A stretch of 64,000 nucleotides of DNA, taken from assembly GCA_963836315.1 (NCBI GenBank), contig CAWIJG010000002.1:1699791-1763790 (forward strand), read 5' to 3'. The first letter of the stretch is position 1. Each line of letters opens with the position of its first letter. Both the position numbers and the translations under genes were made by a program. The notes beneath the pieces were generated by a model that had not been told where the DNA came from, did not search any database, and saw only the letters and a list, made by a program, of their open reading frames with translations. Positions 10,417 through 50,175 of the stretch are shown in pieces. This DNA comes from an uncultured Verrucomicrobiae bacterium (GTDB lineage Bacteria; Verrucomicrobiota; Verrucomicrobiia; Palsa-1439).

Positions 10417-10421
10417 GCGGT

Positions 10422-32640: not shown

Positions 32641-32713
32641 GTGCCGGAGCCGAGTCCGACGAGACGCCGCACGCCGTACTCCCCGGCAAACGCAACACCG
32701 AAGGTGGCCCGAA

Positions 32714-32960: not shown

Positions 32961-33028
32961 TTTCTTTAAGAATCCACGCTGCGGGATTCCCAAAACCAGC
33001 CTGTGCCAGAGCCAAGTGCCTGTACTGA

Positions 33029-33250: not shown

Positions 33251-33326
33251 TCCGCCACCGTTCAACAGGGCCATTCAGCCTGTGCCAATACCGTCGCGCT
33301 TGCCCACCTGACAAACGGCGGATACT

Positions 33327-34268
33327 GTGCCGCTCGTGGACAACATTGCACACGGGCTGACGGGGGCGCTAATTGGCTATTGCGGGTTTCGGCAGCGGGG
33401 CGGGACTGAATCGGGCCGGGCTGCGCTCTGGACGTGCGTTGCGGCGGCGGAGTTTCCCGATATGGATGTCGTGTTGGGCTTTTTTGGCCGCGATACATTT
33501 TTTCGCTGGCATCGCAGCTTCACGCACTCGGCAATCATGTTGCCGCTGTGGGCCACTCTGTTGGCGTGGGTGTTTTGGGAATGGTCGGATCGCAGGAACT
33601 TCCGGTTGTTGTGGTGGGCTGCCGTCGCGGGGATCGCCTCGCATTTGTTGCTCGACTGGCTGACCAACTACGGGACAGAACTGCTTTGGCCGCTGAGCGA
33701 CCGGCGATTTGCCCTGAGTTGGGTGTTCATTGTGGACGTCTATGTATGGGCGGTGTTGCTGATCGGGACGGTGGCGGCGATTTGGACACAGCGCGCGTGG
33801 GTGGCAAGGACGGCGTTGGGGCTGGTCGGGGTGTTCTTTCTTTTCTGCGGCGTCTCGCGAGCGGAGGCGTTGCACCGATACGAAGCAGGTGGCGTGTCGG
33901 GACGGATTGGCGCGTTCCCGCAACCGATGGATCCGTTGCACTGGACGATGGTCCGCGACGACGGCGGCACCATGTATTGGGTGAGCGGTTCTCACTCCAA
34001 CAGGTTCGCGCAGTTTCACGATGACAACTTGCTGTCGAAGGCGGAGGCGACAGAGGCCGTGAGGCTATTCCGATGGTTTGCGGAGTTTCCCCTGGTGGAG
34101 AAAACCGAGGAAGACGGCCACACGGTATTGCGGTACCGCGATCTGCGATTTCGTTCACCAATGCCGCGGGGCCGCGTGCGCGAGGGGATGTTCGTCATTG
34201 CGAAGGTCGTCTTCGACGACCACGGCAACGTCATTGCGGCGAAACTCGCCAGCGAAAATGACCGGTAG
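33327..34268 (+). CDS. Membrane-bound metal-dependent hydrolase, YdjM/DUF457-like, with C-terminal soluble domain
   Basis: N-terminal MPLVDNIAHGLTGALIGYCGF, with conserved His/Asp positions in TM helices (FTHSAIMLPLW, HLLLDWLTNYG), typical of the YdjM family. ~120-aa C-terminal extension. Confidence 0.6.
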   Translation: MPLVDNIAHGLTGALIGYCGFRQRGGTESGRAALWTCVAAAEFPDMDVVLGFFGRDTFFRWHRSFTHSAIMLPLWATLLAWVFWEWSDRRNFRLLWWAAVAGIASHLLLDWLTNYGTELLWPLSDRRFALSWVFIVDVYVWAVLLIGTVAAIWTQRAWVARTALGLVGVFFLFCGVSRAEALHRYEAGGVSGRIGAFPQPMDPLHWTMVRDDGGTMYWVSGSHSNRFAQFHDDNLLSKAEATEAVRLFRWFAEFPLVEKTEEDGHTVLRYRDLRFRSPMPRGRVREGMFVIAKVVFDDHGNVIAAKLASENDR

Positions 34269-34426
34269 CGGAACTGGAGCAGAGCCTGAGCAGCCGGTGA
34301 TTACTTCGCTTGGGGCTGACATAGTCGACGTGAAGAGGGCCGCGCCTGCTCGACTGGCAAACAGCGGATACACTATCCGGCCACGGCGGTTCTCAAGGCG
34401 CGGGGCTGCGCATTGAGGGCAGTCGT

Positions 34427-35578
34427 TCATCGCGTGACACGCTCGATCGGGGCGAGGTTGTTGGTGTTCCAAGCGTAGGATACGCCGTTGGGGAAGGCGA
34501 CAACGTAGCGGCCGTTGGGGAATCGGGTGAGAGTGGGTCTGCCGCGAGTGCCCTTGGTAATATCGACGAGGCATTGCCCCCACGGCGCGGCGCGGTTGGC
34601 GGCTGTGTTCCAGCAACCGTAAAAGGAGTGGGTGTCGTCACCTTTGAACCGGCTTATGTCATCGCCCGCATACGTCCAGCCAGCGGCGTAGTCGTGCGGC
34701 TGGATGAGTTGCACACCGGCGGCGAGCATGATGAGGACGACCTTGGCGTTGCGGTCGGCATTGGACCGGACGAAGCCGACTTCGTCGCAGAACATCGGCA
34801 TACCGGCCGGCAGCATCGCTTTATCGGCCATGAGGTTATCGTAGAGCGGGGCGGATGGAGTTTGTGCCTGCACAGCAGGATGATCCGCCGGATTATAGGG
34901 CACGTCAGGAGCCGTAACCCATGAGCCGTAATAGTGAAAGCTGACAGCATCGCAGTTGGTGGCACAGCCACGGTCAACTAGCTCCTTGAACTCTCTGGGG
35001 CCGCAGCCCTGAAGTGTGAACCCGACGATCTTGACGCGGCCACGCGACAAAGCATGGCATCGTTGGAGAATCGCCGCGTGGCGATCAAAACCTTCCGGTG
35101 AGTAGAAGGGTTCGTTGTCGGGCGCAATCCAGAGGTTGTCCTTGGCGGTCGTGTAGCGTATGCAAAGATGCTCAAACAATCGACCAAGGCGGTCAACGTA
35201 GTTGGAGGTGGTCACATCAAGGGGTGGGTCGAAGATCTTTAGGATGACCTGTCGGCCCCCCTGTGCGGCGAGCCAGCCGTCGAGGCCGGTGAAGTCGAAG
35301 ATGGTGCTGAATTGCTGCGGAAACAACGCCCTAGCGTCTCGTCCCGCCAGTGCGGGATTCGGTATCTCCATTGCCAACCAGCGTGTCTCAGGTGCGCCGC
35401 CAACGCTCCATGCCGGATGCAACGCGGCAACGGCTGGGTCGGACTTGGAGAAGCTTGCCAACGACAGCCACGGCACGGAACCCGGAGGCGCAGCGGCGGA
35501 GCATGGTTTGCAGGCGGCGAGCGCGATCGCGGAGGTGAGTGCGGCAAACAACACAACGCCGATATAAGGACTTCTCAT
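34427..35578 (-). CDS. Secreted glycoside hydrolase, GH5-like (TIM-barrel, NEP catalytic motif)
   Basis: Signal peptide plus lipobox-like LAAC. WIAPDNEPF matches the GH5 acid/base NEP motif. 383 aa. Confidence 0.5.
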   Translation of the reverse strand: MRSPYIGVVLFAALTSAIALAACKPCSAAAPPGSVPWLSLASFSKSDPAVAALHPAWSVGGAPETRWLAMEIPNPALAGRDARALFPQQFSTIFDFTGLDGWLAAQGGRQVILKIFDPPLDVTTSNYVDRLGRLFEHLCIRYTTAKDNLWIAPDNEPFYSPEGFDRHAAILQRCHALSRGRVKIVGFTLQGCGPREFKELVDRGCATNCDAVSFHYYGSWVTAPDVPYNPADHPAVQAQTPSAPLYDNLMADKAMLPAGMPMFCDEVGFVRSNADRNAKVVLIMLAAGVQLIQPHDYAAGWTYAGDDISRFKGDDTHSFYGCWNTAANRAAPWGQCLVDITKGTRGRPTLTRFPNGRYVVAFPNGVSYAWNTNNLAPIERVTR

Positions 35579-35827
35579 GATGTTGCGTACCCCGGTTAGT
35601 TCAATTGATCGTGCCTGTCAAGTGCCCGATCGGAACAGGCATGGCGATTCTCCAGCCGCCACGACCCCTGCCTCGCATTGGTTGCCTATCACTTGCTGGG
35701 TTTCGTTTGCTTGCGAGTCTCACTGAGTTAACGTTGCCCCCCATTGTCAGACGCCACCATCACGACGGCGAATCTCTCTCCTGTGACTGCAGTTTCTTTG
35801 ATCAGAACTGGGTTAACTCGACTACCG

Positions 35828-35915
35828 AGAGCGGCCGCAACGACGTTGGCAGCTTTGCGGGGACAACTGCCATTGAGGGGGGGCGGAACATGATGGGCTC
35901 TTCGCCGGGGCAGCG
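35828..35915. repeat. ~90-bp element homologous to the 3' coding tail of the GH5-like gene at 39253-39340 (orphan gene-tail remnant)
   Basis: cggccgcaacgacgttggcagctttgcgggg...ttgagggg..ggcggaacatgatgggctcttcgcc aligns with cggcggcaacggcgttggcagcattgcgcgcgg...ttgaggggacggaacaggatcggctcctcc. Minus-strand translations are PLNGSCPRKAANVVAAALG versus PLKGGSARNAANAVAAALSN. The copy at 35.8 kb is frameshifted and not attached to an intact gene. Confidence 0.55.
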
Positions 35916-36075
35916 ATGATCCTCTCCGTGGTAAGGAATCTGATCTTGGAGCGACGGGAAGGGCACGGAATCGGCTTATCAGCATTGTCAAAGGTGATAA
36001 AGGTGATACTATGAACGCTTGTCCGACTGAATGGTCCGCGACTGTCGCAAGGCGTGAGTCATACGGGAAAGGTCG

Positions 36076-36960
36076 GATTGGAAGGTCTTCCTCACGATGA
36101 CACCGCAACGGAGATTCATCAAGGAGTTGGACAGGCCCGGTCTTCAGCCAGTCCTGGCGTTTCTGGCAACCCGGTATGCTCAACGAAAAACCGGGTTGGA
36201 TCCGCAGATTTTCCATGACGCTGGGTGGATCCGGCGAGTGGGACACTATTATTTGGCCGAATCTACGACCTTTGATTGGCTTGCGGGCCAAATCGCGGCA
36301 TGGCGCAACGACCTCGGCGGCATTCTCCACATGTACGGGGACTGCTGGTCTTACCAATACAAACCCAAGGAAGGTGACGTCGTGGTGGATATTGGCACCG
36401 GTGTCGGAATCTGCAGGCCATGACAAGAACGGAATCGAGCCGGAATTTGTCGACTAAGCCCGCTGGGGCTTATTCCGTCATTGCGCAGAACCGACACGGC
36501 TTCATTGGTGATCCATGAAACAGGTTCTCATCCTGACGCCATTCTATGACCCGGCCAAAGACGGTATTGCCGAAGCGGCAAAGGTGACGGCGGTCGGTTT
36601 GGCCAACCGTGGCTACCGGGTAACCGTGGCGACTGGTTATCTTCCAGATCGCGGGACGGAAGCGCCCGAAGCCAATCCGACCGTAAAACAATTCAAGGTG
36701 AGCGGGAACTCAAGTCTGCGTGTTGGTATTCAAGGTGAAATAACCGCTTATAAAGACTTCGTCGCGAACTTCAACGGGGAGTTTATCATTTGCCACAGCT
36801 GGGAGTGCTGGTCCACCGACCTCGCGGCATCTGTGTTTCGCAAAACACCAGCGAAGAAAATTCTGGTGAGTCACGGGCTTACCGCTCATCTCGTGCATTG
36901 GCACAGTCACTTCCCCTGGGGGCTTGGCCAATGGCTGGGGTGGCAGCCCTACGTAGTGCG
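36076..36960 (+). repeat. Segmental duplication, copy A (FkbM-GT1 unit; paralogous to 46086-47475)
   Basis: Near-identical DNA to copy B from the shared ggaaggtcttcctcacgatgacaccgcaacggagattcatcaagg start through the first ~450 bp of the GT1 gene. Copy A lacks ~525 bp that are present in copy B (46405-46936). Confidence 0.8.
36097..36423 (+). pseudogene. FkbM-family methyltransferase with in-frame ~525-bp internal deletion (108 aa; N-terminal 102 aa fused to last 6 codons)
   Basis: First 102 aa are ~90% identical to the intact 283-aa FkbM at 46098-46949, up to the SAM-motif VVDIG(A/T)GVG. It then jumps to the C-terminal codons (GIRRT/ICRP) and the stop. Deletion junction cgg|aatc. Confidence 0.7.
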
Positions 36961-37687
36961 CCTGCCGTTCTTGATGAGGAAATTTTCCCGGGTCGTGCTC
37001 TTGAGCAAACGGGTTGATCGACGACGGTTTTTTGACCATCGAGTTGCCAAGCTCACCGGCTATCGGGGGATCGTGGTGATTCCCAACGGTGTCGACCCGG
37101 ACACATTTGACAGACCACTGCCCGACTTCCGCCGCGAGTTCGGTGTCGGGGAAGGTTGCCTGTTTTTATGCGTGGCGAACTACTGCACGCGCAAGAATCA
37201 GGAACTGGCCTTGCGCGCGTTCCGCAAGGCCCGAACAGCCGGGGCAACCCTGGTGTTCATTGGCAGTGAGTTCAATGAGTACCAAGCCATGGTGCGCGAC
37301 CTCGATCAGGAACTGGCAAAATCGCATCCCGAAGGGCGGGTCGTGTTCCTCGAGAAAATCACCCGAGATATGACGCTGGCAGCCTACAACTCGTGTGATG
37401 CTTTCGTCCTGACGTCGAAAGACGAAACTCAGCCGATTGTGCTCTTGGAGGCCATGGCTTGCGCAAAACCGTTTATCAGTACGGAAAGCAGCGGTTGTAT
37501 CGAAGAGTTGCCTGGTGGAGTGGTGGCGCGCTCGGAGCAGGAAATCAGCGAACAGATGAAACATCTTGCTGAAAATCCCGATGCCCGTGTCGCGCTCGGG
37601 AAAACGGGACGCGACGCCTGTCTGACGCGGTACACTCACGAACGCGTGGTGGACGCATACCAAAAACTGTTGGAATCCCTCGGATGA
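36515..37687 (+). CDS. Glycosyltransferase, GT-B fold (GT4/GT1 family)
   Basis: 390 aa. N-terminal MKQVLILTPFYDPAKDGIAEAAKVTAVGLANRGYRVTVATGY. C-terminal GT4 motif region (DAFVLTSKDETQPIVLLEAMACAKPFISTESSGCIEEL). This is the intact copy of the duplicated GT. Confidence 0.8.
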   Translation: MKQVLILTPFYDPAKDGIAEAAKVTAVGLANRGYRVTVATGYLPDRGTEAPEANPTVKQFKVSGNSSLRVGIQGEITAYKDFVANFNGEFIICHSWECWSTDLAASVFRKTPAKKILVSHGLTAHLVHWHSHFPWGLGQWLGWQPYVVRLPFLMRKFSRVVLLSKRVDRRRFFDHRVAKLTGYRGIVVIPNGVDPDTFDRPLPDFRREFGVGEGCLFLCVANYCTRKNQELALRAFRKARTAGATLVFIGSEFNEYQAMVRDLDQELAKSHPEGRVVFLEKITRDMTLAAYNSCDAFVLTSKDETQPIVLLEAMACAKPFISTESSGCIEELPGGVVARSEQEISEQMKHLAENPDARVALGKTGRDACLTRYTHERVVDAYQKLLESLG

Positions 37688-37734
37688 AGTTTGCTCCGTG
37701 ACGCTGCCCGGGGCGATCAGTCGCCCTGGACGGA

Positions 37735-38700
37735 TCAAAATCCCAATCTCCGCCGCAAGCTCCGGCAGGCCATTCTCCCGAGTTCCCGACAAGAACGAAA
37801 CCGGGCGTGATTGTATCTTCGATAGTCTTCTGCGGTGAAGTATTCCTTGGCGTAGGGGAAGAACCCATCTGGCGTAATCAAGAACCCATCCGTTACATAC
37901 GGGTCAAAACCAAGGGCTGGAAAAGAACGCTTCTGAAGATGGATGTACGCATATTCGTGGTCGATGGTACCGCCGTCTCGATTCCGATAGGCTTGAAAAA
38001 TCTTGCCCTTGTACCAGTAGAAAACTTGATCGGAATAGTTCGTGATCTCCGTTCCCTCGAACCGGGTGTGCTTCCACCGTGTCGGAGCCCTTACGTCGAC
38101 GATGAACTCCGCATGGTATTGCACGACGTTGTGGTATCGCAGAATCGGGTGAATCCCGCGCCATTCGTCGAATTGCCTTGTCTCCGGGTCACGAAACGCA
38201 TCCCGGTAATTGACCACATTCGGGGCTTTCAGCGTGAAATACCGGTTCACTTCCGGAGTGTTGCGGTAGAGGCTCAGATGGGCTCGGTTGAGGACCTTGT
38301 TGTGAGACCGGAGAATATCTTCAGTGATAAACGCCCGTAGATCGCCGTAGATCACATCCAAATCACAGTGCCCCCAAAAATCGTATCCCGTAAGCGCTTC
38401 GGCGAATAAGCACCCGTAGGCGGGTTTGAATTTGCACAATTGGTAAGGATTTGGAAGGCTCACCTCAAAGCCCAACTTCTTGGAGAAGCCTTCCCGAAAT
38501 TCGTCCATGGTCGCGTGCTTGATATGCACATTCGAAGGAAGGCGCCGCGCCGTCTTGTCATCTGTAAAGACAAGCCAGTCGATGTCGGGATTGCCTTCGC
38601 AGGAACGGAGCACACAATCGATGTAGGACGGCAGTTTCCCTATGTAGCAGACGACCAGACAAACGGAATTTTTTGACTTCAATGGATCTGCATTAGCCAT
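37735..38700 (-). CDS. Hypothetical protein of a capsule/EPS-locus-associated family (DUF6625-like, possible GT-A-like transferase); lower GC than surroundings
   Basis: 321 aa. N-terminus VCLVVCYIGKLPSYIDCVLRSCEGNPDIDWLVFTDD and a D-x-D-like HCDLDVIYGD. Resembles uncharacterised proteins recurrent in polysaccharide loci. Local GC is visibly lower (~50%). Confidence 0.4.
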   Translation of the reverse strand: MANADPLKSKNSVCLVVCYIGKLPSYIDCVLRSCEGNPDIDWLVFTDDKTARRLPSNVHIKHATMDEFREGFSKKLGFEVSLPNPYQLCKFKPAYGCLFAEALTGYDFWGHCDLDVIYGDLRAFITEDILRSHNKVLNRAHLSLYRNTPEVNRYFTLKAPNVVNYRDAFRDPETRQFDEWRGIHPILRYHNVVQYHAEFIVDVRAPTRWKHTRFEGTEITNYSDQVFYWYKGKIFQAYRNRDGGTIDHEYAYIHLQKRSFPALGFDPYVTDGFLITPDGFFPYAKEYFTAEDYRRYNHARFRSCRELGRMACRSLRRRLGF

Positions 38701-39252
38701 TCTGCGGCGTCTCCTGGCTTGCCGGGGTCATCACACGCCTCGTTCGTATGTATGGGCATCCCGATGGACAACACGATGTTTTTTATACAGAAGCCTGGCC
38801 GCAGTGGCAATACGCATTACTTGACGAGCTTGTTGCAGGCGCCATTTGGCTGCTTGGGCAAGACTCAGAGTGCCCGTGCCGGGGAAAACAGTCACCGCAT
38901 CCGTCGGTCCCGTGGGCGCAATCCTGTTGCCAAATATATCGGTGATACTGGTCCAGCCATTTGCCGTCAGGGCGGTGAACAACAGAAAAAAGCCACACAG
39001 GTTCTTCATGGCGTCGTGTGCGAGAAGGGTGAATAGTATTCGTTGTTCCTGTCAAGTACCCATTTGGAAGCGGCTCGGTGCTTGTTGGGCCGCCGAGATC
39101 CTGCTACGGATTCTTTGCCAATCGCCTACTGCGTCCCATTTGCACCCGAGTTTTACTAAAGCAGCTCCGTCGCGATCGCTTTCAGAGACCATGATCACGA
39201 CGACGAAGATCTCTCGTGCGGTCGCGATCTCTTTGCCCGGCACTGGATCAGC

Positions 39253-40863
39253 TCAATTGCTGAGTGCGGCGGCAACGGCGTTGGCAGCATTGCGCGCGGA
39301 ACCGCCTTTGAGGGGACGGAACAGGATCGGCTCCTCCCCCAAGGATCCGGGAGTAATATCGTTGCCGTAGATGTCCGTCATGCGGAAGCCGGGCAGTGCG
39401 GCGATGGCGCGTGATTGTCCCTCGACGCACCACGCAAACACAATCATACCGGTCCTGGGCCGCTTCCATGTGTAGAGATAAACCTGGCCATCAAGGACCC
39501 GGCTGTCGCCGAGTTTTGCGTGGTTCAGCCAGTAGCAGGTCATCAAGAATGCCGAGGTCTTGGGGTGTGGGCCGCGCGGAGCGTACACGTTATTATTCGG
39601 GGCGGGCGACTCATCCCAGCCGTAGATTTCCCAGTTGGAATTTGAAACCGCTCCAAATAACCCCATGCATTGCGGAGCAAGGTCGACCACTCCGGCGGCG
39701 CGGTACATGATGGTCGTCTTAATGGTACGGCAGAAACCACGATACCATGAAAGCCCAGACATTGTAATAGTCTCATCGTCTGGGTGAGTTAAATTGGCAC
39801 CGAGTGCGCTGGTGCCGTAAAGCCCAATCTCGGTAACGAGCATCGGCTTCTTGGCAACCAACGGACCGAAGTTTGTCGCCAAACGGCTGGGGATCGGCAT
39901 GGCCCAAGAGTCGTTTTCATCAGGCGCCCACCAGCGCATGTCGTAATCGTGGAAGCTCCAGTAGTCGAGCATTTTCAGGATCCCCTGTTGAACCAAAGCG
40001 TCGCTCTCAGTTCGGATGCGGGGGCTGGCCCAGGTAGGACCAACGAGTTTGATGTTCAGATGCAGCGTCTTACGGACAGAATCTGCTGCGCGGGTGAGAT
40101 TCATCAACACAGGGACCACGTCCATCTCGTTGGTTCCGCCGAATTTCGTATACCACGGTTCATTCCAGATTTCCCAACCATAGAGCTTCGAGCCGTACCG
40201 CCGCATGGCGGCAGTGGCGAATTGGGTATAGGCGGTGACAAGTTCGTTCGTGCCCACCCAGGAAGGCACGCTATCGCCACCCAGATAGATGATTTTACGG
40301 TTGGTGCCTGCCAGGGCAGCCATGCCCTGATCCATCTGGGACCAATCCCAGACGTCACGTTGCGGCTGGACGACTGACCAACCGCCAAGGCCGGTACGTT
40401 CCCAACTTGGGCCCAACAGGGCATTCAGGCGGTCGCTGAAAAACCAAGCCCCGGTAAATTGCGAAGAGGGAAGAGAGGTCGGGGCATAGTCGTCTGGCAA
40501 CACGGCAAACTGTGTTCGGTCGCCATCGGTCTCGACGAAGTAATGGCCCTGCGAGAATTGCATGTTGGTCGAAGTGCCCTCGTAGACGACGTTGCCGAAC
40601 GTGTTCAGAACGCGAAATGGGTTCCCATTGGTCGTGGCAATCCCAATCGTATCGGAAACACGGAACAGGCCGTTCCTGTCATCAGGTGTTAGCTGAAATA
40701 CGCCGGGGTTGTAGACGTTAGACGAATACGAGAAGGGGATTGTGCTGACCGTCACCTGCGCGGAGGCGGGTCTGATCTCCTGAAACTGCAATGCAATCAA
40801 CCACAGCAGCACCAGCGGCCAGCTGTTGTGCTGCGTTTCTCGACGGGGAATACAGAGTGTCAT
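39253..40863 (-). CDS. Secreted glycoside hydrolase family 5-like
   Basis: Signal peptide (WPLVLLWLIALQF...ASAQ). GH5 signature GWEIWNEPW (catalytic acid/base NEP). Second conserved Glu region MLVTEIGLYG (nucleophile TE). 536 aa. Confidence 0.6.
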   Translation of the reverse strand: MTLCIPRRETQHNSWPLVLLWLIALQFQEIRPASAQVTVSTIPFSYSSNVYNPGVFQLTPDDRNGLFRVSDTIGIATTNGNPFRVLNTFGNVVYEGTSTNMQFSQGHYFVETDGDRTQFAVLPDDYAPTSLPSSQFTGAWFFSDRLNALLGPSWERTGLGGWSVVQPQRDVWDWSQMDQGMAALAGTNRKIIYLGGDSVPSWVGTNELVTAYTQFATAAMRRYGSKLYGWEIWNEPWYTKFGGTNEMDVVPVLMNLTRAADSVRKTLHLNIKLVGPTWASPRIRTESDALVQQGILKMLDYWSFHDYDMRWWAPDENDSWAMPIPSRLATNFGPLVAKKPMLVTEIGLYGTSALGANLTHPDDETITMSGLSWYRGFCRTIKTTIMYRAAGVVDLAPQCMGLFGAVSNSNWEIYGWDESPAPNNNVYAPRGPHPKTSAFLMTCYWLNHAKLGDSRVLDGQVYLYTWKRPRTGMIVFAWCVEGQSRAIAALPGFRMTDIYGNDITPGSLGEEPILFRPLKGGSARNAANAVAAALSN

Positions 40864-41333
40864 GAACGTATCAATTGTCCTGCTGGAACCTGCGCGCGAT
40901 ACTTAGAGCAGGCGGTGAGCCAAGAAAGCTGCCGGGGGTCAGTACTTTTGAGTCGGTGCGGGAGTGTCGAGTCTGAGAAACAGAAGCAACTTTGAGACTG
41001 GAGAGGACAGTGGTTGGCAAGCGGAGCGGCAGGAGCCTCGGCTTGCGGCCACGTTTTTCCCATGCCGAGTTGAGTTCTCTCCTGTTGCGAGGGGACTGGG
41101 GACAGCGAAACTGAAGGACTCATAAATGTGGTTGACGAGGTCTATGTGGAAATGGATGATTGTAGTCCTTGATACTGCGAGCTTCGATGGGCAAGTCCGT
41201 TCGACGCTGGGGCAGGTTTCTTTGTTCGTGCAAGCAACTGAGTGCTCAAAAGTGAAAACAACCGAAGTCGCCTTGACGGCGACCTGCGGCTAACCGGGCT
41301 GGTGAGAGCCATAATTTTTGCAGCCCACAAAGG

Positions 41334-42434
41334 ATGATCTTGATGGGAGCAAGCTCCAACCCGAAAACGATTCTTGTCACCGGATCGAACGGCCTGATCG
41401 GGTCAGAGGTCTGCCTGCACTTCGCGGCGCGGGGATTCGCCGTCTCGGGCATCGACAACAACCAACGGGCGGTTTTTTTTGGACCCCAAGGGGACACGCG
41501 CTGGAACCAGGGCCGCCTCCAGAAGGCGATCCCTGATTTCCGTCATTACGAAGTCGATGTACGGGACCGTGCTCGCATCGAGCAGACGATCAAGGAAGTC
41601 TCGCCCCAGTTGATCGTGCATGCGGCGGCGCAACCGTCACACGATCTGGCCGCTTCCATGCCCTTTGAGGATTTTGACACCAATGCCGTTGGGACACTGA
41701 ACATGCTCGAGGCGACGCGCCGACATTGTCTGGAAACCCCGTTTGTGTATCTATCGACGAACAAGGTTTATGGAGATGGTCCCAACACAATTCGCCTTAA
41801 AGAGCACGAGACGCGCTGGGATTACGATGACCCTCGGTTCACCCACGGGATTCCGGAGACGTTTCCCGTGGATCAGGTCTTGCATTCGCTCTTCGGGGCC
41901 TCGAAGCTTGCGGCGGATACACTGGTCCAGGAATACGGACGCTATTTCAAGATGCCAACTTGCTGCTTGCGAGGCGGTTGCCTGACCGGCCCCAGTCATT
42001 CCGGGGTGGAACTCCATGGCTTTCTCAGCTATCTCATCAAGTGCAACTACGAGAACAAGCCGTACAAAGTTTACGGCTACAAGGGCAAACAGGTCCGCGA
42101 TAACATCCACTCCGAGGATGTGGCCGCGTTCATCTACGAGTTCTATCGCCGACCACGGGTGGCGGAGGTATATAACATCGGCGGTGGAGTCGAGAACTCC
42201 TGCTCGATTCTTGAGGCGTTTTCATTTGCAGAGAAGCTGAGTGGACGGAAGCAGGTATACGAATACGTCGATCAAAACCGGATTGGAGATCACATTTGCT
42301 ATTATAGTGACCTGCGCAAGATGAAGGAACACTATCCATCCTGGTCGATCACCAAGACCTTGCCACAGATTTTCAAGGAGATTGCGGCATCTTGGGGCCA
42401 GCGATTGGATCGGGGAGCCACGGATCACCACTAG
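41334..42434 (+). CDS. NAD-dependent epimerase/dehydratase (extended SDR), CDP-paratose/tyvelose 2-epimerase-like
   Basis: [11 protein letters not shown] Rossmann motif and YxxxK (YLSTNKVYG / ASKLAA). 366 aa. Confidence 0.75.
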
Positions 42435-42461
42435 CCGCCGTGACGATGGCGCATCAGGACG

Positions 42462-43532
42462 ATGAAGATACTTATCACCGGGGTTTGCGGTTTTGTCGGC
42501 AGCACGATTGCGGAGGAGTTGGCCCGGTCGTCGTCGGGCTGCCAGTTGTTCGGGCTCGATAACCTGAGCCGGGCCGGTAGCGAGGTGAACCTGCCCCGCG
42601 TCAAGAAATGCGGCGTGCGTTTTTTCCCCGGCGACGTCCGGAACGCCAGTGATCTGGAATCTCTTCCCACCGTTGACTGGGTCATCGATGCCGCCGCCAA
42701 TCCGAGTGTGCTGGCGGGAATTACCGGCCAAGTGAGCAGCCGCCAGCTCATTGAACATAATCTGCTGGGGACCATCAACGTGTTGGAGCACTGCAAGCGC
42801 TCGAGCGGCGGGTTGATACTGCTCAGCACCAGCCGCGTCTATTCGATTGCCGCGCTGGCGAGCGCGCCGCTGGACGTGGTGAACGAAGCCTTCGTACCGC
42901 GGCGGCGTGAGATCAACCAACCGGGGTGGACGGAGCACGGGATTCGCGAAGACTTTTCCACCCAATCCCCCTTGTCCTTATATGGTTGCTCCAAACTCAC
43001 GTCGGAACTATTAGCGCAGGAGTACGGGGCGGCATTCGGATTGCCTGTTTACATCAACCGGTGTGGGGTCTTGGCCGGCGCGGGTCAATTCGGAAAGCCG
43101 GACCAGGGTATTTTCTCGTTCTGGATCCATTCCCACTGCCGGCGTCGCCCACTCAAATACATCGGCTTCGGCGGGCACGGCCATCAAGTGCGCGATTGCC
43201 TGCATCCGCGCGACCTCGTGCCGCTGTTGTACAAGCAGATGCAGAGCTCGGGCAGGCATGCCGGACAAATCATCAACTTGGGTGGCGGGATGGCCAGCGG
43301 CGTTTCTCTCGCGCAATTGAGCCAATGGTGTGATCGCCGGTTTGGTTCACACCCCGTCGGGAGCGACAGCGTCGACCGGCCCTTTGACATTCCCTGGATC
43401 GTGCTTGACCCGTCTCGCGCGGAGCAACTTTGGGGATGGCGGGCGACGACGTCGCTGGAACAGGTTCTGGACGAGATCGCCGAGCACGCCTTGGCGCACC
43501 CCGAGTGGTTGGACTTGTCAAGCAACCCATGA
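42462..43532 (+). CDS. NAD-dependent epimerase/dehydratase (extended SDR), paralogue of the preceding gene
   Basis: ITGVCGFVGSTIAEEL Rossmann motif and YGCSKLTSELL catalytic YxxxK. 356 aa. ATGA overlap with the next gene. Confidence 0.75.
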   Translation: MKILITGVCGFVGSTIAEELARSSSGCQLFGLDNLSRAGSEVNLPRVKKCGVRFFPGDVRNASDLESLPTVDWVIDAAANPSVLAGITGQVSSRQLIEHNLLGTINVLEHCKRSSGGLILLSTSRVYSIAALASAPLDVVNEAFVPRRREINQPGWTEHGIREDFSTQSPLSLYGCSKLTSELLAQEYGAAFGLPVYINRCGVLAGAGQFGKPDQGIFSFWIHSHCRRRPLKYIGFGGHGHQVRDCLHPRDLVPLLYKQMQSSGRHAGQIINLGGGMASGVSLAQLSQWCDRRFGSHPVGSDSVDRPFDIPWIVLDPSRAEQLWGWRATTSLEQVLDEIAEHALAHPEWLDLSSNP

Positions 43533-44314
43533 CCGAAACGCCTCCAGTGCCCCGACCGTTGACATTGCTTTCCGTGGTGCTTCCCGCGCGGGACGAAGAG
43601 GGGTGCATTTGCTCCACCGTGGAGCATCTGCACGTCGAATTGCGACTGCGCAATGTGCCGCACGAGATCATCGTGGTGGATGACGGCAGCACGGACGCGA
43701 CATGGCGATTACTTCTCGAACTGCAGCAGCGGGTGCCCACGCTGAGACCGGTTCAAAACACCGGGCTGCATGGGATTGGCCGAGCAATCATTTGTGGACT
43801 GGACGCCATGCGAGGCGACGCAGGGGTGATCATGATGGCCGACGAGTCGGACGACTGTCGTGATGTGGTGCGTTATTGGGTCGAATTGAACAAGGGGTTC
43901 GACTGCGTCTTCGGCAGCCGGTTTATCAAGGGTGGCGGGGTGATCGACTACCCCCCGCACAAGCTTGTGTTGAATCGTCTGGCCAATTATTTCCTCCGGA
44001 TTCTGTTCCGCATTCGGCTCAACGACACCACGAATGCGTTCAAAGCCTATCGCAAAGAGGTGATTATCGGCTGTCGTCCGCTGATCTCGCCGCATTTCAA
44101 CCTGTTAGTGGAACTTCCGTTGAAGGCGATCGTGCGTGGCTATACCTGGACGGTGATTCCCATCACGTGGCGCAATCGTCGCACCGGTGAGGCAAAGCTC
44201 AAGATCAAGGAGATGGGCAGCCGCTACCTGTTCATCTGTCTCTACGTCTGGCTGGAAAAGTATTTCAGCCAGGGCGACTACAAGAAACACGGCCAAAACT
44301 CATCCAACTGCTGA
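43529..44314 (+). CDS. GT2 polyprenyl-phosphate sugar synthase (DPM1/ArnC-like, soluble type)
   Basis: From MTETPP. LSVVLPARDEE...IIVVDDGSTD...MMADESDD (GT-A DXD). Resembles dolichol-/undecaprenyl-phosphate glycosyltransferases. No C-terminal TM domain. Confidence 0.75.
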   Translation: MTETPPVPRPLTLLSVVLPARDEEGCICSTVEHLHVELRLRNVPHEIIVVDDGSTDATWRLLLELQQRVPTLRPVQNTGLHGIGRAIICGLDAMRGDAGVIMMADESDDCRDVVRYWVELNKGFDCVFGSRFIKGGGVIDYPPHKLVLNRLANYFLRILFRIRLNDTTNAFKAYRKEVIIGCRPLISPHFNLLVELPLKAIVRGYTWTVIPITWRNRRTGEAKLKIKEMGSRYLFICLYVWLEKYFSQGDYKKHGQNSSNC

Positions 44315-44347
44315 AACCCCCGGCATCGTGGATTGCGGCGGTGTGGG

Positions 44348-45970
44348 TCAGGGAATCTCCTTGATGAGTATATCGTCATTCTGAAACAAAGTCTTCCAAC
44401 CATCCGCGACATGCGTCAGATGCAAGTGATAGGTCTCCCGCGCCAACCGGGCCTGTCCGGGATTGATCACTTGGACGGCATGGAGCAAGGGAGATTCACT
44501 TATCATAACCAGTTTGTTGTACCCGAGTTCTTTGATCCTCGCCAGGTTCGCGGGGTTTTCTAGAAACTCAGTGCCCCAAATGCTCAATCCCTTCCGGTTC
44601 GTCAGCAGAAACTCGTTGCCACCCCATCCGCCGTTCTGCACCAGCAGGCGGTCCGATTCGTTGGTGTACTTTTGGATTAGCGCCGCGATTTGGCGCGGGT
44701 ACGGATCGTATTCTTCGACAACCTTTATGCCCAGCAGTCCTTGAATCAAAGACAAGCCCAACAGGACGGCGGCGGCACCGACCCAAAGGCGTTCCCTTGA
44801 CAGGACGCTCGGCATCGCGAGGGCCTCAAAGTCCACCACTGCCTGTGCACAAAGCATGGCGATTGCCGGCGAATACATCAGGTAGTAGTGGCGATGGTGA
44901 AGAACAAGATGGGAAAAGATCATCGTTGTCAGGACATCTCCCAACAGCCAGTACTTGGACACGCTACCGCGCTTGCCGAACAAGAGCGCGTATCCCAGCA
45001 GCCCGACGAGAACCAGGCTGCCAAAGCAACAGTTCAGGATCCTCCAACAAGCTTTACCCCAGATCGCCGGAGAGAGACGGTAGTGCCAGTCTCCGAAGTA
45101 CCAAAAAACCATTTGCGGATCGGACAGGCGAAGATCAACCAGGGGAAACTCCGCTTGGGTGACGCAAGAATTTGTATGCCTCGTCCATGCGGCGAACGCG
45201 CTGGCCGCCACCAACCCCGCTGTCCCCAAAAGCAACCAGTGCCGATGGGATTGTCGGTGGAACCGAAGAAGCAGGAAAAACGCGGCAAGTCCTGCCGCCA
45301 TGAAAAAAGGCAGTTTTGAGGTGGCTGAAACCGCCCCTGATAGACACGCGAGTGCCCACCAGAATGCGTTCGGGTGTTGAAGGAGCTTCACGGCGAAGTA
45401 TAAGAACCACACCATGCTGGCAAGCGAGAATCCATCCGTACCCGCGACGCCCGAGTAAAAGAAAACAATCGGCTGAGCCAGAAAGAACACTAAGGTCCAC
45501 GCCGCGCAGCGCCTGCCAAGGTACTCGCGGGACACTTGGTAGAGTGGCCACAGGCAGGTGAAGAACAAGATAAGCGAGGTGATATTCCCCCACCCGAACC
45601 ACGGGCCGCAAAGCTTGAAAACCAGGGCGGTGGCGGCCTGCCAGAGGGGAAATTCCTGTGGAGTCGGCGTCTGCGAAGCATTGAAACCGACGATGACGGG
45701 TCGCAGAAGATCAATCCTTGTCCGGGCGTAGCGCAAAGCCGCACCCAGATGCTGATCGCGATAAAGTGGATAGCCCGCCCGGGCACTGGCTATATGAAAC
45801 AGGCAGGCAGCCACTGCAAAGAAGGCGGCCACAAGCAACAGTAGCTTGGTTCCGTTCTGCCGGGGTTTGTCGTCAATCATGGAATTTGGCCTGTCCTGCG
45901 AACACTTCGCATCCCATTCCGATGAGCTTGGAGCCCACAGAATACCCGCCCTTGCCGGATTTGCCAGCAA
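44348..45970 (-). CDS. GT-C fold membrane glycosyltransferase, ArnT/PMT-like (GT39/GT83-type)
   Basis: 540 aa, ~11 TM helices in the N-terminal 2/3, plus a ~180-aa C-terminal periplasmic domain. First periplasmic loop after TM1 (YPLYRDQHLGAALRYA) resembles the ArnT/PMT family. The start may instead be the internal MIDDKPRQ (45880). Confidence 0.5.
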   Translation of the reverse strand: MLANPARAGILWAPSSSEWDAKCSQDRPNSMIDDKPRQNGTKLLLLVAAFFAVAACLFHIASARAGYPLYRDQHLGAALRYARTRIDLLRPVIVGFNASQTPTPQEFPLWQAATALVFKLCGPWFGWGNITSLILFFTCLWPLYQVSREYLGRRCAAWTLVFFLAQPIVFFYSGVAGTDGFSLASMVWFLYFAVKLLQHPNAFWWALACLSGAVSATSKLPFFMAAGLAAFFLLLRFHRQSHRHWLLLGTAGLVAASAFAAWTRHTNSCVTQAEFPLVDLRLSDPQMVFWYFGDWHYRLSPAIWGKACWRILNCCFGSLVLVGLLGYALLFGKRGSVSKYWLLGDVLTTMIFSHLVLHHRHYYLMYSPAIAMLCAQAVVDFEALAMPSVLSRERLWVGAAAVLLGLSLIQGLLGIKVVEEYDPYPRQIAALIQKYTNESDRLLVQNGGWGGNEFLLTNRKGLSIWGTEFLENPANLARIKELGYNKLVMISESPLLHAVQVINPGQARLARETYHLHLTHVADGWKTLFQNDDILIKEIP

Positions 45971-46097
45971 AAACGCCAGTAATACGGGCGTGACTTATTC
46001 CGAGAGTGGCACGATCGGTCAACTCCGTTCGAACGCGGCATGGACTGGGATCGGCTTGCTTTGGAATGAGGTTTTGCATTAGAAAGTCTTCCTCACG

Positions 46098-46949
46098 ATG
46101 ACACCGCAACGGAGATTCATCAAGGCCTTGGACAGGCCCGGTCTTCAGCCAGTCCTGGCGTTCTTGGCGACCCGGTATGCTCGACGAAAAACCGGGCTGG
46201 ATGTGCAGATTTGTTATGATGCCGGGTGGATCCGGCGAGTGGGAGACTATTGTCTTGCCGAATCCACGACCTTTGACTGGCAGGCGGACCAAATCGCGGC
46301 ATGGCGGGACAATCTTGGCGATATTCTCGACATGCACCGGGACTGGTGGTTTTACCAATACAAGCCTAAGGAAGGTGATGTCGTGGTCGATATCGGCGCT
46401 GGCGTCGGGGAGGCAACGCTGCTCTTTTCGAAATCCGTGGGGACACGAGGAAGGGTTCTCTCCGTAGAGGCCCACCCCACGACCTTTCAGCTTTTGCAGA
46501 AGACCTGCCGCTACAATCAATTGGATCAGAACACAACCTGTCTGCAACGCGCCGTCATGGACAAAGCCGGCAGCATTCGTATTGATAATCGTGCTCACAA
46601 GGGTAGCACCATCCGATTGTCGGAGAATCATGACTCTTCACTTCCTCAGATAGCCGCGATATCACTGGATGAATTGTGTGCAGACCAGAGCATCTCCCAG
46701 GTTGACTTCCTGAAGATGAACATTGAGGGGGCCGAACGATTCGCGATCCAGGGGATGCCTCGCATGATTGAGCGGACGCGCGCACTGTGCATCGCCTGCC
46801 ATGACTTCATTGGTGCCCGCGATGGCTTTTATCGGACGAAGGCCTTGGTTATTGATTATCTGCGGGATCACAATTTTGATGTCGTCACGCGAGAACAGCA
46901 CCCGGAACCGTGGGCGAGAGACCATGTTTACGGAATCCGCAGGACATGA
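46098..46949 (+). CDS. FkbM-family SAM-dependent methyltransferase
   Basis: 283 aa. Class I MTase motif VVDIGAGVGEATLLF. FkbM-type C-terminus. Intact paralogue of the truncated gene at 36097. Confidence 0.8.
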   Translation: MTPQRRFIKALDRPGLQPVLAFLATRYARRKTGLDVQICYDAGWIRRVGDYCLAESTTFDWQADQIAAWRDNLGDILDMHRDWWFYQYKPKEGDVVVDIGAGVGEATLLFSKSVGTRGRVLSVEAHPTTFQLLQKTCRYNQLDQNTTCLQRAVMDKAGSIRIDNRAHKGSTIRLSENHDSSLPQIAAISLDELCADQSISQVDFLKMNIEGAERFAIQGMPRMIERTRALCIACHDFIGARDGFYRTKALVIDYLRDHNFDVVTREQHPEPWARDHVYGIRRT

Positions 46950-47042
46950 ATGCGGACGGAATATGACCGAACTCTGTCAATTGGGTCCAGCGGGTCTGTA
47001 TTTCGTCATTGCGCAGAACCGACACGGCGTTGTTGGTGATCC

Positions 47043-47475
47043 ATGAAACAGGTTCTCATCCTGACCCCATTCATTATGACCCGGCCAAAGACGGTCTTGC
47101 CGAAGTGGCAAAGGCGACGGCGGTCGCTTTGGCCAACCGTGGCTACCGGGTAACGGTGGCGACTGGTTATCTTCCAGATCGCGGGACGGAAGCGCCCGAA
47201 GCCAATCCGACCGAAAACAATTCAAGGTGAGCGGGAACTCAAGTCTGCGCGTTGGTATACAAGGTGAAATAACCCCTTATAAAGACTTCGTCGCGAACTT
47301 CAAGGGGGAGTTTATCATTTGCCACAGATGGGAGTGCTGGTCCACCGACCTCGCGGCATCTGTGTTTCGCAAAACACCAGCGAAGAAGATTCTGGTGAGT
47401 CACGGGCTTACCGCTCATCTCGTGCATTGGCACAGTCGCTTCCCATGGGGGGCTTCGCCAACGGCTGGGGCGGCA
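47043..47475 (+). pseudogene. Degenerate 5' fragment of the GT4/GT1 glycosyltransferase (paralogue of 36515-37687)
   Basis: ~90% nucleotide identity to the first ~430 bp of the intact GT. 1-bp deletion (ccgaccgaaaacaattc versus ccgaccgtaaaacaattc) and other indels break the frame (ORF fragments 47009-47230 and 47227-47667). Homology is lost after ~47460 and the gene is truncated by the Wzx gene end. Confidence 0.65.
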
Positions 47476-47691
47476 TGCTTCTGCCGCGCGTGTTCTCTCG
47501 GGTCTATCGCCTGCTGCTGCTCAAGGAAGTATTCCCCAACTGGGGGCATGGTATTTACGCGTATTACCCGCATGTCTAACGTTCGGGGACTGTTGTGCAC
47601 TGCGCCGGGGTGTGCGGCACACCGCCCCGGCATGAACATCAAGTCCCTGGGATCGCCCCACCTCTAACCAACCCGCCCGCCGGTTGCGGGC

Positions 47692-49242
47692 TCACTTGTT
47701 GGCGCCCAAAAGAGGGGCCAGCATCGGCTGGAAGAATCGTGGCACGTGCCCGAGGACTTCCACTCGCATTTCCCTGGTCATGCCGTAGCGGAGAAATAGA
47801 ATAAGACCGAGAGGGCCAAGCGACACTGCATTCACTACCAACCGTGGGACGGGCCGGAGCCCTTGGCCAAGATACCACACGACCAGTGCCGTCAGGATCA
47901 TGATCCCCGCCACTCTTACCGTCGTAGCCAGCCACCGAAGCTCCAATTCGGGAAAATGGAACCCGAAGTAGGCGTTGATGCGTTTGATACCGTAGGGCCC
48001 GCTGAAGCAGGCGCTGCACAAAATCGAGGTGCCAATAATCGCTGGAAAACCTCCTTGACGGCTCACCAGGCTGGCGACAATGACAAATACCAGGCCTTCC
48101 AGCAGATAGACGTACCGCATAAAGCCGATTCGTTTGGTCAGAATGGTGAAACAATTGTCGGCATGAACGACGATGGTAACGATCAGCCAGCAGTCCAATA
48201 GCACGTCATTCCATCCCGACCACGAGATCTTGCCCGCGGTCCACACAGTAACGAAGGTGCTATTGCAGGACGCGTAGATCACTGCGGCAACGACGCCGAT
48301 CACTTCCGAAATAACGAGGATTCCACTGAAACGCGTCCGCAGTCTCTCGTGCTCGCCCCGGACGATCATTTCGGAGAACGCCGGCTCCGAGAAATCATAA
48401 AACTGGTAGATCAACTGGCTGATGAAGGCAAACGCCTTCGTGCCCACAACCCAGACGGCCACCGCCACCAACCCCATGGTGCGTGAGATGATCACAGACT
48501 GGGTTGCCATGATCAGCAGGCTGCCGAGGTGGATCACGAACACATCCTTGCTATACATGAATAGTTCCTTGAACCGTGACCACACCGGTCTTCCCCAAGC
48601 ATGACGCGGGGGGAGCAACCGCAGCTTTAAACAGCTCCAGCAGTTGACGGACACGCTGAACATCAGGGCGAACGCATTCATCCACAGAATGCTGAACACG
48701 CCGGATTGCGCCCTTAATGCCACATAGAGAACTCCGAGCTGAACGAGAAACATAACGGCCTGCATGTGATTGATGATGTCGTTACGTTGGTGTGCATACA
48801 GAACGTTCCGGAACAAGCGGGTCGCAAAGGTTGCGCCGGTAATGGCGCATTGCCAGCGCACCAAAAGGTTGAACTGTGGCCGGACTTCGATTGGTATCCG
48901 CAGGAGATTGGCGAAGAATGGGGCCAGTAGTAGCCCCGTCGCCAGAATCAGGAGTCCCTGCACCAGATTCACCAGAACGGCTGTCTGGATCAGGCTCCCG
49001 TACGCCCCGCTGGCGGGTTGGTCCTTCTCTTCAATCAACAGGCGCGCCACGGCTGGCGACATGCCGAAATCGATCACGATCAGATAGCTCGCAATCTGAA
49101 ACATCAAGGCCCACAACCCGAACTCCTGCTTGGTTACGAAGTGGAGAGCCAGGGGTACGGAAGCAACCGAGTAGACGAGATTGCTTGCCAGCGATACATA
49201 GCTGGAAGCGATGCTGTGAAGAAAAAAACGAAGTCGTGACAT
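47692..49242 (-). CDS. wzx: Polysaccharide/O-unit flippase, Wzx-like (MOP superfamily, PST family)
   Basis: 516 aa, ~12-14 TM. N-terminal SYVSLASNLVYSVASVPLALHFVTKQEFGLWALMFQIASYLIVIDFGMSPAVARL, typical of PST-family transporters. Confidence 0.7.
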   Translation of the reverse strand: MSRLRFFLHSIASSYVSLASNLVYSVASVPLALHFVTKQEFGLWALMFQIASYLIVIDFGMSPAVARLLIEEKDQPASGAYGSLIQTAVLVNLVQGLLILATGLLLAPFFANLLRIPIEVRPQFNLLVRWQCAITGATFATRLFRNVLYAHQRNDIINHMQAVMFLVQLGVLYVALRAQSGVFSILWMNAFALMFSVSVNCWSCLKLRLLPPRHAWGRPVWSRFKELFMYSKDVFVIHLGSLLIMATQSVIISRTMGLVAVAVWVVGTKAFAFISQLIYQFYDFSEPAFSEMIVRGEHERLRTRFSGILVISEVIGVVAAVIYASCNSTFVTVWTAGKISWSGWNDVLLDCWLIVTIVVHADNCFTILTKRIGFMRYVYLLEGLVFVIVASLVSRQGGFPAIIGTSILCSACFSGPYGIKRINAYFGFHFPELELRWLATTVRVAGIMILTALVVWYLGQGLRPVPRLVVNAVSLGPLGLILFLRYGMTREMRVEVLGHVPRFFQPMLAPLLGANK

Positions 49243-49494
49243 GGCCCGCTCGGCTTAAACCAACACCTCAATGCCGTGATCGTATTGCTTTGTCGTTAGG
49301 CTCCGACCGTGCTCGACATTTCCCATATGACTCACGCCCCGCGACCGCTGCGGGCCATTCAGCCTGACAGCCACTCACAGTATCACTTTAGACAATGCCG
49401 ACAAGCCGATTCTGATGCTTTTGTGTTCACTCCCAGATCGGATTCCCTATTGCGGAGAGGATGGTCGCCGCCTCCGGCAACGTCCAATACGGCG

Positions 49495-50175
49495 TCACGG
49501 ACCCGTTTGGGGCAACTGTTTCAGGCAGCGGATCACACGTGCCGGATTGCCCACGACCAATGAGTCGGGCGGGATCTCCTTGATTGAAACCACGCTGCCG
49601 GCGCCAATGATGCTGCGGTCGCCGATGGTGACACCCTTTAAGATTACGGCGTTGGCGCCGATCAAGACGTCGTCCCCGATTGCGACGGGTGCGGTTCTAC
49701 AGCCGGCTCTGTCAGCCGCAACGTCGCGGCGGGCGAGATGGTCCAAGGCGTGAAAATCGTGGTCGTAAATTCGGGCGCTCCCGCCGATTTTCGTGTTCTG
49801 ACCGATCCGAATACTGGTCTTGGAGGACAGAACCGCAAACGAGCAGCCGCTATTATTGCCGATGGCAATGCGGCCTTCACCCAGGCACTGGAAGATCGTG
49901 GGATTCGTCCGGCCAACCAGATTGGAACCGGTGCGGGAGTTGATTATCACGTTCTCGCCAATCTGAATGGCGCCCCGTCGAGCCACGCGAATGATAGCGT
50001 GACCATCCACGCGAAGGCCCCGACCATACGGGCAGCTGAGTATCCGCAGCAGCATTTTGGTTCTGAGTGTCCAAAAGAACGTGGAGGCGTATCCGACGAT
50101 GATGTCAAACGCGACAAACAGATGCGCGGGGAAGTCATACTTGTCGATAAACTGTTGCAGACGCGTTCTCTTCAT
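49495..50175 (-). CDS. Hexapeptide-repeat (left-handed beta-helix) acetyltransferase, WcaF/maltose-O-acetyltransferase-like
   Basis: Isoleucine-patch hexapeptide repeats (IGENVIINS...IGNNSGCSF...[16 protein letters not shown]...[31 protein letters not shown]). Start taken at MKRTRL. Confidence 0.75.

Follow-up and report, generated by a model that had tools for sequence, protein, structure and literature searches.

The 64-kb window analysed here, a stretch of contig DNA from an uncultured Verrucomicrobiae bacterium whose positions serve as coordinates throughout, contains a chromosomal, probably Wzx/Wzy-type surface-polysaccharide gene cluster in which a unit made of an FkbM-family methyltransferase gene (fkbM) and the start of a GT4 glycosyltransferase (GT) gene occurs twice. 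By Pfam and NCBIfam annotation, the cluster encodes two epimerase/dehydratase proteins, three GT2 and two GT4 glycosyltransferases, a PMT_2-type GT-C enzyme and a DUF6625 protein, together with a Wzy_C protein, a putative Wzx-like flippase, a sulfotransferase, a hexapeptide acyltransferase and a protein resembling YfhO. Self-BLASTN of the window resolved the two copies, A and B, as collinear direct repeats about 10 kb apart, with a gapless match of 86.4% identity (36077-36407 against 46078-46408, E 8e-110) followed by a match of 91.0% identity (36405-36945 against 46931-47475, E 0), far above what chance would give for two homologous copies in one sequence. A repeat search put the identity of the repeat core (36471-36922) at 93-97%. 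A preliminary description of this DNA had proposed such a two-copy FkbM and GT unit inside a glycan locus, at 36076-36960 and 46086-47475, and the self-comparison that it called for confirmed the pair, with boundaries correct to within about 15 bp. Its estimate of about 90% DNA identity averages two very unlike values, 83% and 96%.

Each copy keeps a different intact gene, GT in A and FkbM in B, as open reading frames (ORFs), alignment and Pfam matches agree. The FkbM protein of copy B scores 86.5 bits against TIGR01444 (cut-off 37.7) and 57.3 bits against PF05050 (cut-off 22.7), carries the S-adenosylmethionine-binding motif I (hhDhGxG) as VVDIGAG at residues 95-101, where the Rossmann-like domain starts, and is 92% identical to a homologue of the same length (P0121, 283 aa). 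Base-by-base alignment shows that copy A has lost 525 bp, or 175 codons, in frame. What remains is an ORF in which 102 N-terminal codons run straight into the final 6 codons and native stop, ending ...VVDIGTGVGICRP*; with 175 of the 283 codons gone, about 8 residues of the methyltransferase domain are left and the domain is incomplete, and the remnant (36097-36423) matched no Pfam family at E 0.001. Copy B thus resembles the FkbM-family glycan O-methyltransferases (TIGR01444, PF05050) in passing the curated thresholds and in having VVDIGAG, whereas copy A retains only the N-terminal extension and motif I. The family includes NoeI, the Nod-factor fucose 2-O-methyltransferase; copy B is a predicted methyltransferase of this family.

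The glycosyltransferase shows the reverse pattern. The intact protein of copy A, GT390, matches both GT-B half-domains (Glycos_transf_1, PF00534, 71.1 bits; Glyco_transf_4, PF13439, 34 bits) and has the same length, 390 aa, as its homologues P0002-P0004 and P0006, to which it is 78-81% identical. In copy B the gene starts at 47043 and carries indels of +2 (47073-47074), -1 (after 47213) and +1 (~47447); the first stop follows after 36 codons, homology ends at 47475 near codon ~144, and no ORF covers the catalytic C-terminal domain. The preliminary description was accurate on all of these points: the in-frame 525-bp deletion beside an intact 390-aa GT in copy A, the remnant of 102 N-terminal residues plus the last 6 codons, and the intact 283-aa FkbM beside a frameshifted and truncated GT in copy B. 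The positions of these and the other features are collected in Table 1.

Table 1. Features of the duplicated unit and its surroundings (window positions).
Feature	Position	Strand	Basis or detail
Repeat copy A	36077..36945	+	self-BLASTN, repeat search, pairwise alignment
Repeat copy B, at the ancestral site	46078..47475	+	self-BLASTN, repeat search, pairwise alignment, relatives' synteny
FkbM-family methyltransferase gene, intact, 283 aa	46098..46949	+	TIGR01444, PF05050
525 bp absent from copy A	46406..46930	+	flanked by CGG microhomology, 46406-46408 and 46931-46933
fkbM remnant ORF, 108 aa, deletion joint 36404/36405	36097..36423	+	ORFs, alignment
GT4 glycosyltransferase GT390, intact, 390 aa	36515..37687	+	Pfam
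GT pseudogene fragment, codons 1-144, three indels	47043..47475	+	alignment, translation
Young tract, 40 bp intergenic and GT codons 1-143	36476..36945	+	4.3% divergence from B, dS 0.06
DUF6625 gene, conserved downstream neighbour of GT390	37735..38700	-	Pfam E-value 5e-85
MetW-type methyltransferase remnant, last ~51 codons, in-frame stop; deletion joint	47469..47621	+	tblastn, BLASTN
X, putative second, diverged flippase promoter/leader copy, joined 20 bp ahead of where fkbM of copy A starts	35904..36075	+	74% to X'
Sigma-70-like promoter match in X (TTGTCA, 16 nt, TACTAT, TG before -10)	35985..36012	+	consensus match
X', putative resident flippase promoter/leader	49314..49478	-	between hexapeptide-transferase gene and flippase start
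g383, 383 aa	34427..35578	-	part of insert
Weak g536-like remnant, last ~26 codons, abutting the left edge of X	35827..35906	-	tblastn, nucleotide patches
g536, 536 aa	39253..40863	-	part of insert; closest homologue other than itself <= 47% identical
Ancestral block separating the repeats, present once: two epimerase/dehydratase genes (+), GT2 (+), PMT_2-type GT-C (-)	41334..45970	.	Pfam
Wzx-like flippase gene g516	47692..49242	-	87.6% identical to the L081 homologue, which carries precomputed PF13440
Wzy-type polymerase/ligase-like protein	51407-53101		PF04932 Wzy_C 38.7 bits vs cut-off 31.7

Divergence between A and B is unevenly distributed along the repeat. A maximum chi-square analysis placed a change-point after position 36475, about 40 bp before the GT start (0 of 2000 permutations reached the observed value, p < 0.0005), with 17% divergence to its left and 4.3% to its right. 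Across codons 1-102 of fkbM, the synonymous (dS) and non-synonymous (dN) divergences between the copies are 0.40 and 0.095 (their ratio, omega, is 0.24), and across codons 1-143 of the GT gene they are 0.062 and 0.035 (omega 0.56). From one half to the other, divergence thus changes about 4-fold and dS 6.5-fold, and the difference in synonymous changes is significant (Fisher p 1.4e-5). With an omega of 0.24, most of the fkbM divergence between A and B arose under purifying selection. A three-way comparison of discordant sites between A, B and a related contig, L167, likewise divided the repeat. The 5' part of fkbM is about equidistant among the three (A=B 15, A=L167 20 and B=L167 24 sites, lying in runs), the 3' end of fkbM with the intergenic region groups A with L167 (2, 17 and 4 sites, in the same order), and the GT start groups A with B (8, 2 and 3 sites). 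Over the GT 5' end, A and B share 95.4% identity, against only 75-79% with the relatives L082 and L083. Gene conversion of the 470-bp GT tract and a separate or older origin of the fkbM alleles fit these data equally well.

The remnant in copy A has evolved differently from its intact counterparts. Counted over fkbM codons 1-102 as synonymous/non-synonymous, lineage-specific changes number 8/16 in A, 12/6 in B and 4/2 in L167, and the changes in A include the conversion of DWWFYQYK to DCWSYQYK within the most conserved motif of the family, the one usable as a search pattern. With its non-synonymous changes in excess of those in B and L167, the remnant shows relaxed constraint and has been drifting as a pseudogene for some time.

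To establish which copy occupies the original site, we compared the window with its nearest relatives found, which were Verrucomicrobiia metagenome-assembled genomes and metagenome contigs from peat and soil. Searches with FkbM gave best matches of 59% among genome contigs and 65% among metagenome contigs, and a protein search gave one match of 92%, on a 1.36-kb contig. Four relatives were informative for gene order. L083 (GT 79% identical) has ydjM, two epimerase genes, GT2 and PMT_2 on the minus strand, followed directly by the GT gene, and no fkbM; L164 (GT 78% identical) has PMT_2 on the minus strand, an intergenic region, the GT gene and DUF6625 on the minus strand, again with no fkbM. 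In L082 (GT 81% identical), the 5' order is two epimerase genes, GT2, and then, further on, a 3' remnant of PMT_2, the intergenic region and the GT gene, which is followed on the 3' side by DUF6625 (minus strand), a MetW-type methyltransferase gene (plus strand), the flippase gene (minus strand) and the flippase promoter/leader element X' described below. The 1.36-kb contig L167 has the 5' end of PMT_2 (minus strand), the intergenic region, an intact fkbM and the GT start, and is 88.8% identical to B over 1365 bp. Because these relatives show the order PMT_2, intergenic region, GT, the position of copy B, downstream of the divergent PMT_2 gene, is the ancestral position of the GT gene. The comparison with related genomes that the preliminary description had proposed thus points to B as the ancestral copy and places A in a lineage-specific insert. 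The adjacency of GT390 and DUF6625, common to the window at copy A, L082 and L164, is also ancestral, and the window retains it at copy A only. The block originally duplicated exceeded the 0.9-1.4 kb visible today and reached at least through GT390 and DUF6625.

The right edge of copy B records what was lost there. Immediately after the repeat ends, 47469-47621 matches residues 283-333 of the methyltransferase of L081 (65% identity, E 4e-15, tblastn) and, at the nucleotide level, positions 12991-13103 of L082 (83%, BLASTN). The complete MetW-type gene is present in both L081 and L082, and in L081 it lies between DUF6625 and the flippase gene. Because the methyltransferase remnant directly follows the end of the repeat, the right edge of B is a deletion joint at 47469-47475, where nucleotide ~433 of the GT gene is fused to the end of the MetW-type gene. 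One deletion of ~2.5-3 kb (about 2.6 kb on the scale of L082) took the 3' end of the GT gene, DUF6625 and most of the MetW-type gene. A cut-and-paste transfer of the block from B was rejected, as tblastn found no 5' part of a MetW-type gene at the right end of A (38731-39252).

The simplest alternative account, close to the reciprocal decay favoured by the preliminary description, holds that the fkbM-GT unit was duplicated once, recently and as a segment, and that the two copies then degenerated neutrally in complementary fashion. The direct repeats, the one intact gene per copy and the closer kinship of the two GT 5' ends to each other than to any relative all speak for it, and part of the earlier idea stands: each copy does keep a different intact gene, and the remnant in A does show relaxed constraint. 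The uneven divergence with its sharp change-point means, however, that one duplication plus decay is insufficient. The fkbM alleles of A and B are no closer to one another than either is to an allele of another population, their divergence accumulated mostly under purifying selection, and the truncation of B is a large multi-gene deletion that also took neighbouring genes. Nor are the copies equivalent, since B sits at the ancestral site and A was relocated or imported with what appears to be a copy of the flippase promoter/leader. We regard a single duplication as unlikely.

Copy A lies in a lineage-specific insert of ~6.8 kb (~34300-41120) between ydjM and the epimerase genes, which holds g383 (minus strand), X, the fkbM remnant, GT390, DUF6625 (minus strand) and g536 (minus strand). 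The limits of the insert come from a conserved 40-nt element that lies 33 nt after ydjM in L083 and at 41120-41162 in the window. On its far side, the block between the insert and copy B (41334-45970) runs collinear with its counterparts in L082 and L083, with a nucleotide identity of 77-83%. Neither g536 nor g383 matched any Pfam or NCBIfam model. At the left edge of X, a frameshifted sequence resembles the 3' end of g536 in two collinear segments (residues 509-517 and 517-534, E 0.005, tblastn) and in nucleotide patches of 26/29 and 15/17 (35827-35906 against 39259-39336); weak as this evidence is, it suggests that a short duplication of the g536 3' end may flank the X-fkbM-GT-DUF6625 block.

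Element X, directly upstream of copy A, matches at 74% identity the sequence preceding the flippase gene (X', reverse complement of 49314-49478), and X' in turn shares 82-87% identity with its positional counterpart in L082. A core of ~105 nt of this non-coding element, which spans ~105-170 nt in its copies, also lies upstream of the L082 flippase gene (14987-15158, minus strand) and of a class-I methyltransferase gene in L165 (1780-1886, minus strand); an nhmmer profile search of the window and 170 loci found just these four copies. The sigma-70-like match in X is the sole promoter-like match in 35500-36600, and a conserved GC hairpin region follows the promoter in the element. A 9-nt tandem duplication (AAGGTGATA twice, 35991-36008) in the promoter spacer is unique to the X copy before the fkbM remnant and puts a second TTGTCA 16 nt from the -10 hexamer. 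An RNAalifold consensus of the four X sequences showed almost no covariation, and X had no Rfam match at gathering thresholds. Between X and the fkbM ATG lie 20 nt, of which 18 are shared by A and B, and these continue the pre-GT intergenic region of relatives that have no fkbM. Because these 20 nt match B at 18 positions, they suggest that copy A derives from a B-type context and gained its link to X afterwards.

We consider it probable, at roughly 0.65, that the fkbM and GT4-start module is doubled because recombination rebuilt the locus, and not through one clean duplication. Remodelling of the locus by recombination or horizontal transfer, which the preliminary description had raised, is borne out; together, the scars of the locus point to homologous and illegitimate recombination that struck a small number of junctions again and again, with no mobile-element genes involved. 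We suggest that an fkbM-GT390-DUF6625 block was copied from a B-type context, either long ago in this genome or from a related strain, and placed behind promoter X. Later gene conversion between the copies, or a second recombination, could have homogenised the 470 bp around the GT start, after which redundant parts would have been lost. The cell would now run on a single complement, with FkbM supplied from B, where it would be expressed from the PMT_2/fkbM divergent region, and with GT390 and DUF6625 supplied from A under promoter X. GT390 would be transcribed from X through the fkbM remnant, and the in-frame nature of the deletion would let ribosomes reach the native stop of the remnant, 91 nt before GT390, which could avoid a Rho-type polar loss of GT390 expression.

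Several points weigh against this reconstruction. With the closest genomes found at ~81-89% identity, the order of events given here is tentative, and the equal fit of gene conversion and of separate fkbM allele origins leaves two routes to the same mosaic. The proposed B-type origin of A depends on only 20 nt, and the assignment of X as a promoter on a consensus match and on conservation in four sequences. The argument from non-polarity is hypothetical, one deletion in three being in frame by chance, and the co-location of A and B on one molecule is presumed from the assembly. A donor-like arrangement (X, intact fkbM, GT390, DUF6625 and g536) was not found among the relatives searched, and a donor search through g536 returned nothing above 47% identity besides g536 itself.

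An extension of the recombination reading, which we hold to be rather improbable, is that X is a portable promoter/5'-leader cassette, specific to this Verrucomicrobiia lineage, that is copied before various glycan genes, the fkbM/GT repeat being the footprint of a relocation by promoter capture. The nearest analogues of X are the RfaH-dependent JUMPstart/ops leaders found in polysaccharide operons of enterobacteria. X resembles them in being conserved, non-coding and placed at the head of more than one glycan operon before different first genes, and differs in that X and X' lack the ops octamer GGCGGTAG, have no Rfam match and were found in four copies; the octamer has three matches in the window (4862, 5971 and 61425), none of them in X or X'. 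If the idea were true, a portable X would change the set of modification and glycosyltransferase genes whose expression is coupled to that of export, and the ~470-bp repeats might add RecA-dependent loss of 10 kb and a glycan-switching subpopulation.

The remaining alternatives are each very improbable. The first is an assembly chimera, a metagenomic or strain-mixture join of half-loci from two strains whose copies never shared a cell. The relatives do come from metagenomes, and the locus is polymorphic among them. The copies, however, are 4-17% diverged and so are no collapsed or mis-joined identical repeat; GT390 (P0001) and g536 (P0241) of the A-side insert were matched at 100% identity on one 1.78-Mb contig (for B-side proteins, an exact match was not found); and one intact copy is kept per gene, as a single working genome predicts. 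The left flank of B recurs in L167 and the right flank of A in L082 and L164, and the MetW-type methyltransferase gene adjoins the flippase gene in L082, matching the right edge of B.

Just as improbable is a functional switch, in which RecA recombination between the repeats would excise or re-amplify the 10-kb interval (the GT390 3' end, DUF6625, g536, two epimerase genes, GT2 and PMT_2) and yield glycan-off or altered variants. With 470 bp at ~96% identity in direct orientation 10 kb apart, the repeats are of a kind that makes adequate RecA substrates, and glycan loci are frequent targets of phase variation. A deletion, however, could not be undone and would take with it both epimerase genes and the sole intact GT390; among the scanned proteins there is no sign of a mobile element, invertase or recombinase, the remnants have decayed as ordinary pseudogenes do, and no variant contigs were found. 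Equally hard to credit is an adaptive in-frame deletion after which selection would maintain the 108-aa FkbM fragment as a small protein, such as an adaptor built on the conserved N-terminal extension of the family: the fragment's start codon, frame and native stop are preserved and its N-terminal ~95 residues lie outside the Pfam methyltransferase domain yet are conserved in homologues, but the changes specific to A are mostly non-synonymous (16 against 8) and strike the most conserved motif, the fragment has no family match, and a deletion falls in frame one time in three.

Recombination mediated by an insertion sequence (IS) or composite transposon was rejected, as no transposase, integrase or terminal inverted repeats were found at the block edges. 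In six Pfam/NCBIfam scans, none of the 60 predicted proteins of the window was a transposase or integrase, and in the repeat search X/X' was the window's only inverted repeat. ARAGORN found no tRNA gene in the window, and an Rfam scan of it gave no match at gathering thresholds. A plasmid origin was likewise rejected: 33000-50000 had no megablast match in PLSDB. The flippase g516 scored 39 bits (E 5e-10) against NF041503 WZX_like, far below the cut-off of 300, and had no Pfam match in the window scan.

The relatives also show changes of their own. L082, the closest relative, carries a 620-bp duplication of the intergenic region and GT 5' end (6533-7150 and 9878-10503, 86.6% identical), both copies of which are ~91% identical to L083, with a foreign Methyltransf_23 gene and small ORFs between them; its PMT_2 gene is cut to a 118-bp 3' remnant. 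The same GT-start junction was thus hit twice, independently, in evolution. An imperfect short direct repeat, ATGAC...TGATCC, brackets the fkbM cassette of copy B (46095-46102 and 47030-47045), and L083, which has no fkbM, carries ATGACCC at the empty site (6195-6211), which fits microhomology-mediated gain or loss of fkbM. The possibility that fkbM and GT390 form an old conserved operon was rejected, because in distant relatives fkbM adjoins a flippase or epimerase gene and not GT390. In other relatives, the slot before the GT gene is held by other methyltransferase families.

Elsewhere in the window, the element at 41120-41162, upstream of the first epimerase gene, is 85-92% conserved in L082 and L083 whereas adjacent intergenic DNA is not; possibly it serves the epimerase-GT2 operon as promoter or operator. 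Homologues of g536 (<= 47% identity) in Verrucomicrobia are often fused to LamG and Ig-like domains. A 33-nt direct repeat (32709-32741 and 32790-32822, 97% identical, 81 nt apart) sits in non-coding DNA of low complexity, GC-rich and of the GAGCCGAGC type, that separates a 167-aa ORF from ydjM. The remaining window encodes BatD/tetratricopeptide-repeat, resistance-nodulation-division (RND) efflux and phospholipid-synthesis functions. Two tandem AcrB-type RND transporter genes (11847-14957 and 14954-18103, both on the minus strand) share 64-69% DNA identity and are old paralogues of the MdtB/MdtC type, with a gene for a membrane-fusion protein upstream of the pair; a third RND system occupies 4505-10416.

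Remnants of this kind have precedents in O-antigen clusters. Those of Salmonella groups B1, D1 and D3 contain wzy remnants and a partial wzy duplication (PMC3715488), and in E. coli O-antigen clusters gene remnants are listed as 'anomalies' and taken as a sign of recent events (PMC7685785). The present locus resembles these clusters in having a dead fragment at the old site with function supplied by an intact copy elsewhere, in junctions of unlike divergence that mark recombination, and in related strains that degrade differently. It differs in its Verrucomicrobiia-type host, in the lack of IS or H-repeat elements at the junctions, in the reciprocal decay of two adjacent genes and in the apparent duplicated promoter/leader on the relocated copy. 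A further parallel is the reciprocal loss of genes once they have been duplicated, with the related idea of duplication-degeneration-complementation, which reportedly goes back to Force et al. in 1999. The locus is like that case in that each copy is disabled for a different component, so that both loci are needed; here, however, whole genes of a two-gene module were lost, not sub-functions of one gene, and the ages are mosaic.

For annotation, 36097-36423 and 47043-47475 are pseudogene fragments, and the locus has one FkbM methyltransferase and one GT390. Measured against an ancestor resembling L082, FkbM would take the place in this lineage of the MetW-type methyltransferase of L082, and a hexapeptide transferase that of its acyltransferase-3/GDSL pair. 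Differences of this kind are those that alter glycan decoration, and the mosaic synteny of the relatives makes serotype-like variation between strains, which the preliminary description had envisaged, plausible. Mosaicism and gene remnants are already well known in O-antigen and capsule loci, and the view of glycan-locus evolution is unchanged; the case is a further example of ordinary mosaic glycan-locus evolution, with a tidy reciprocal pattern and of modest significance. It offers a base-pair-resolution record of how a surface-polysaccharide locus in a poorly studied phylum would have been rebuilt, with a gene pair relocated behind a copied promoter and the old site deleted down to fragments.

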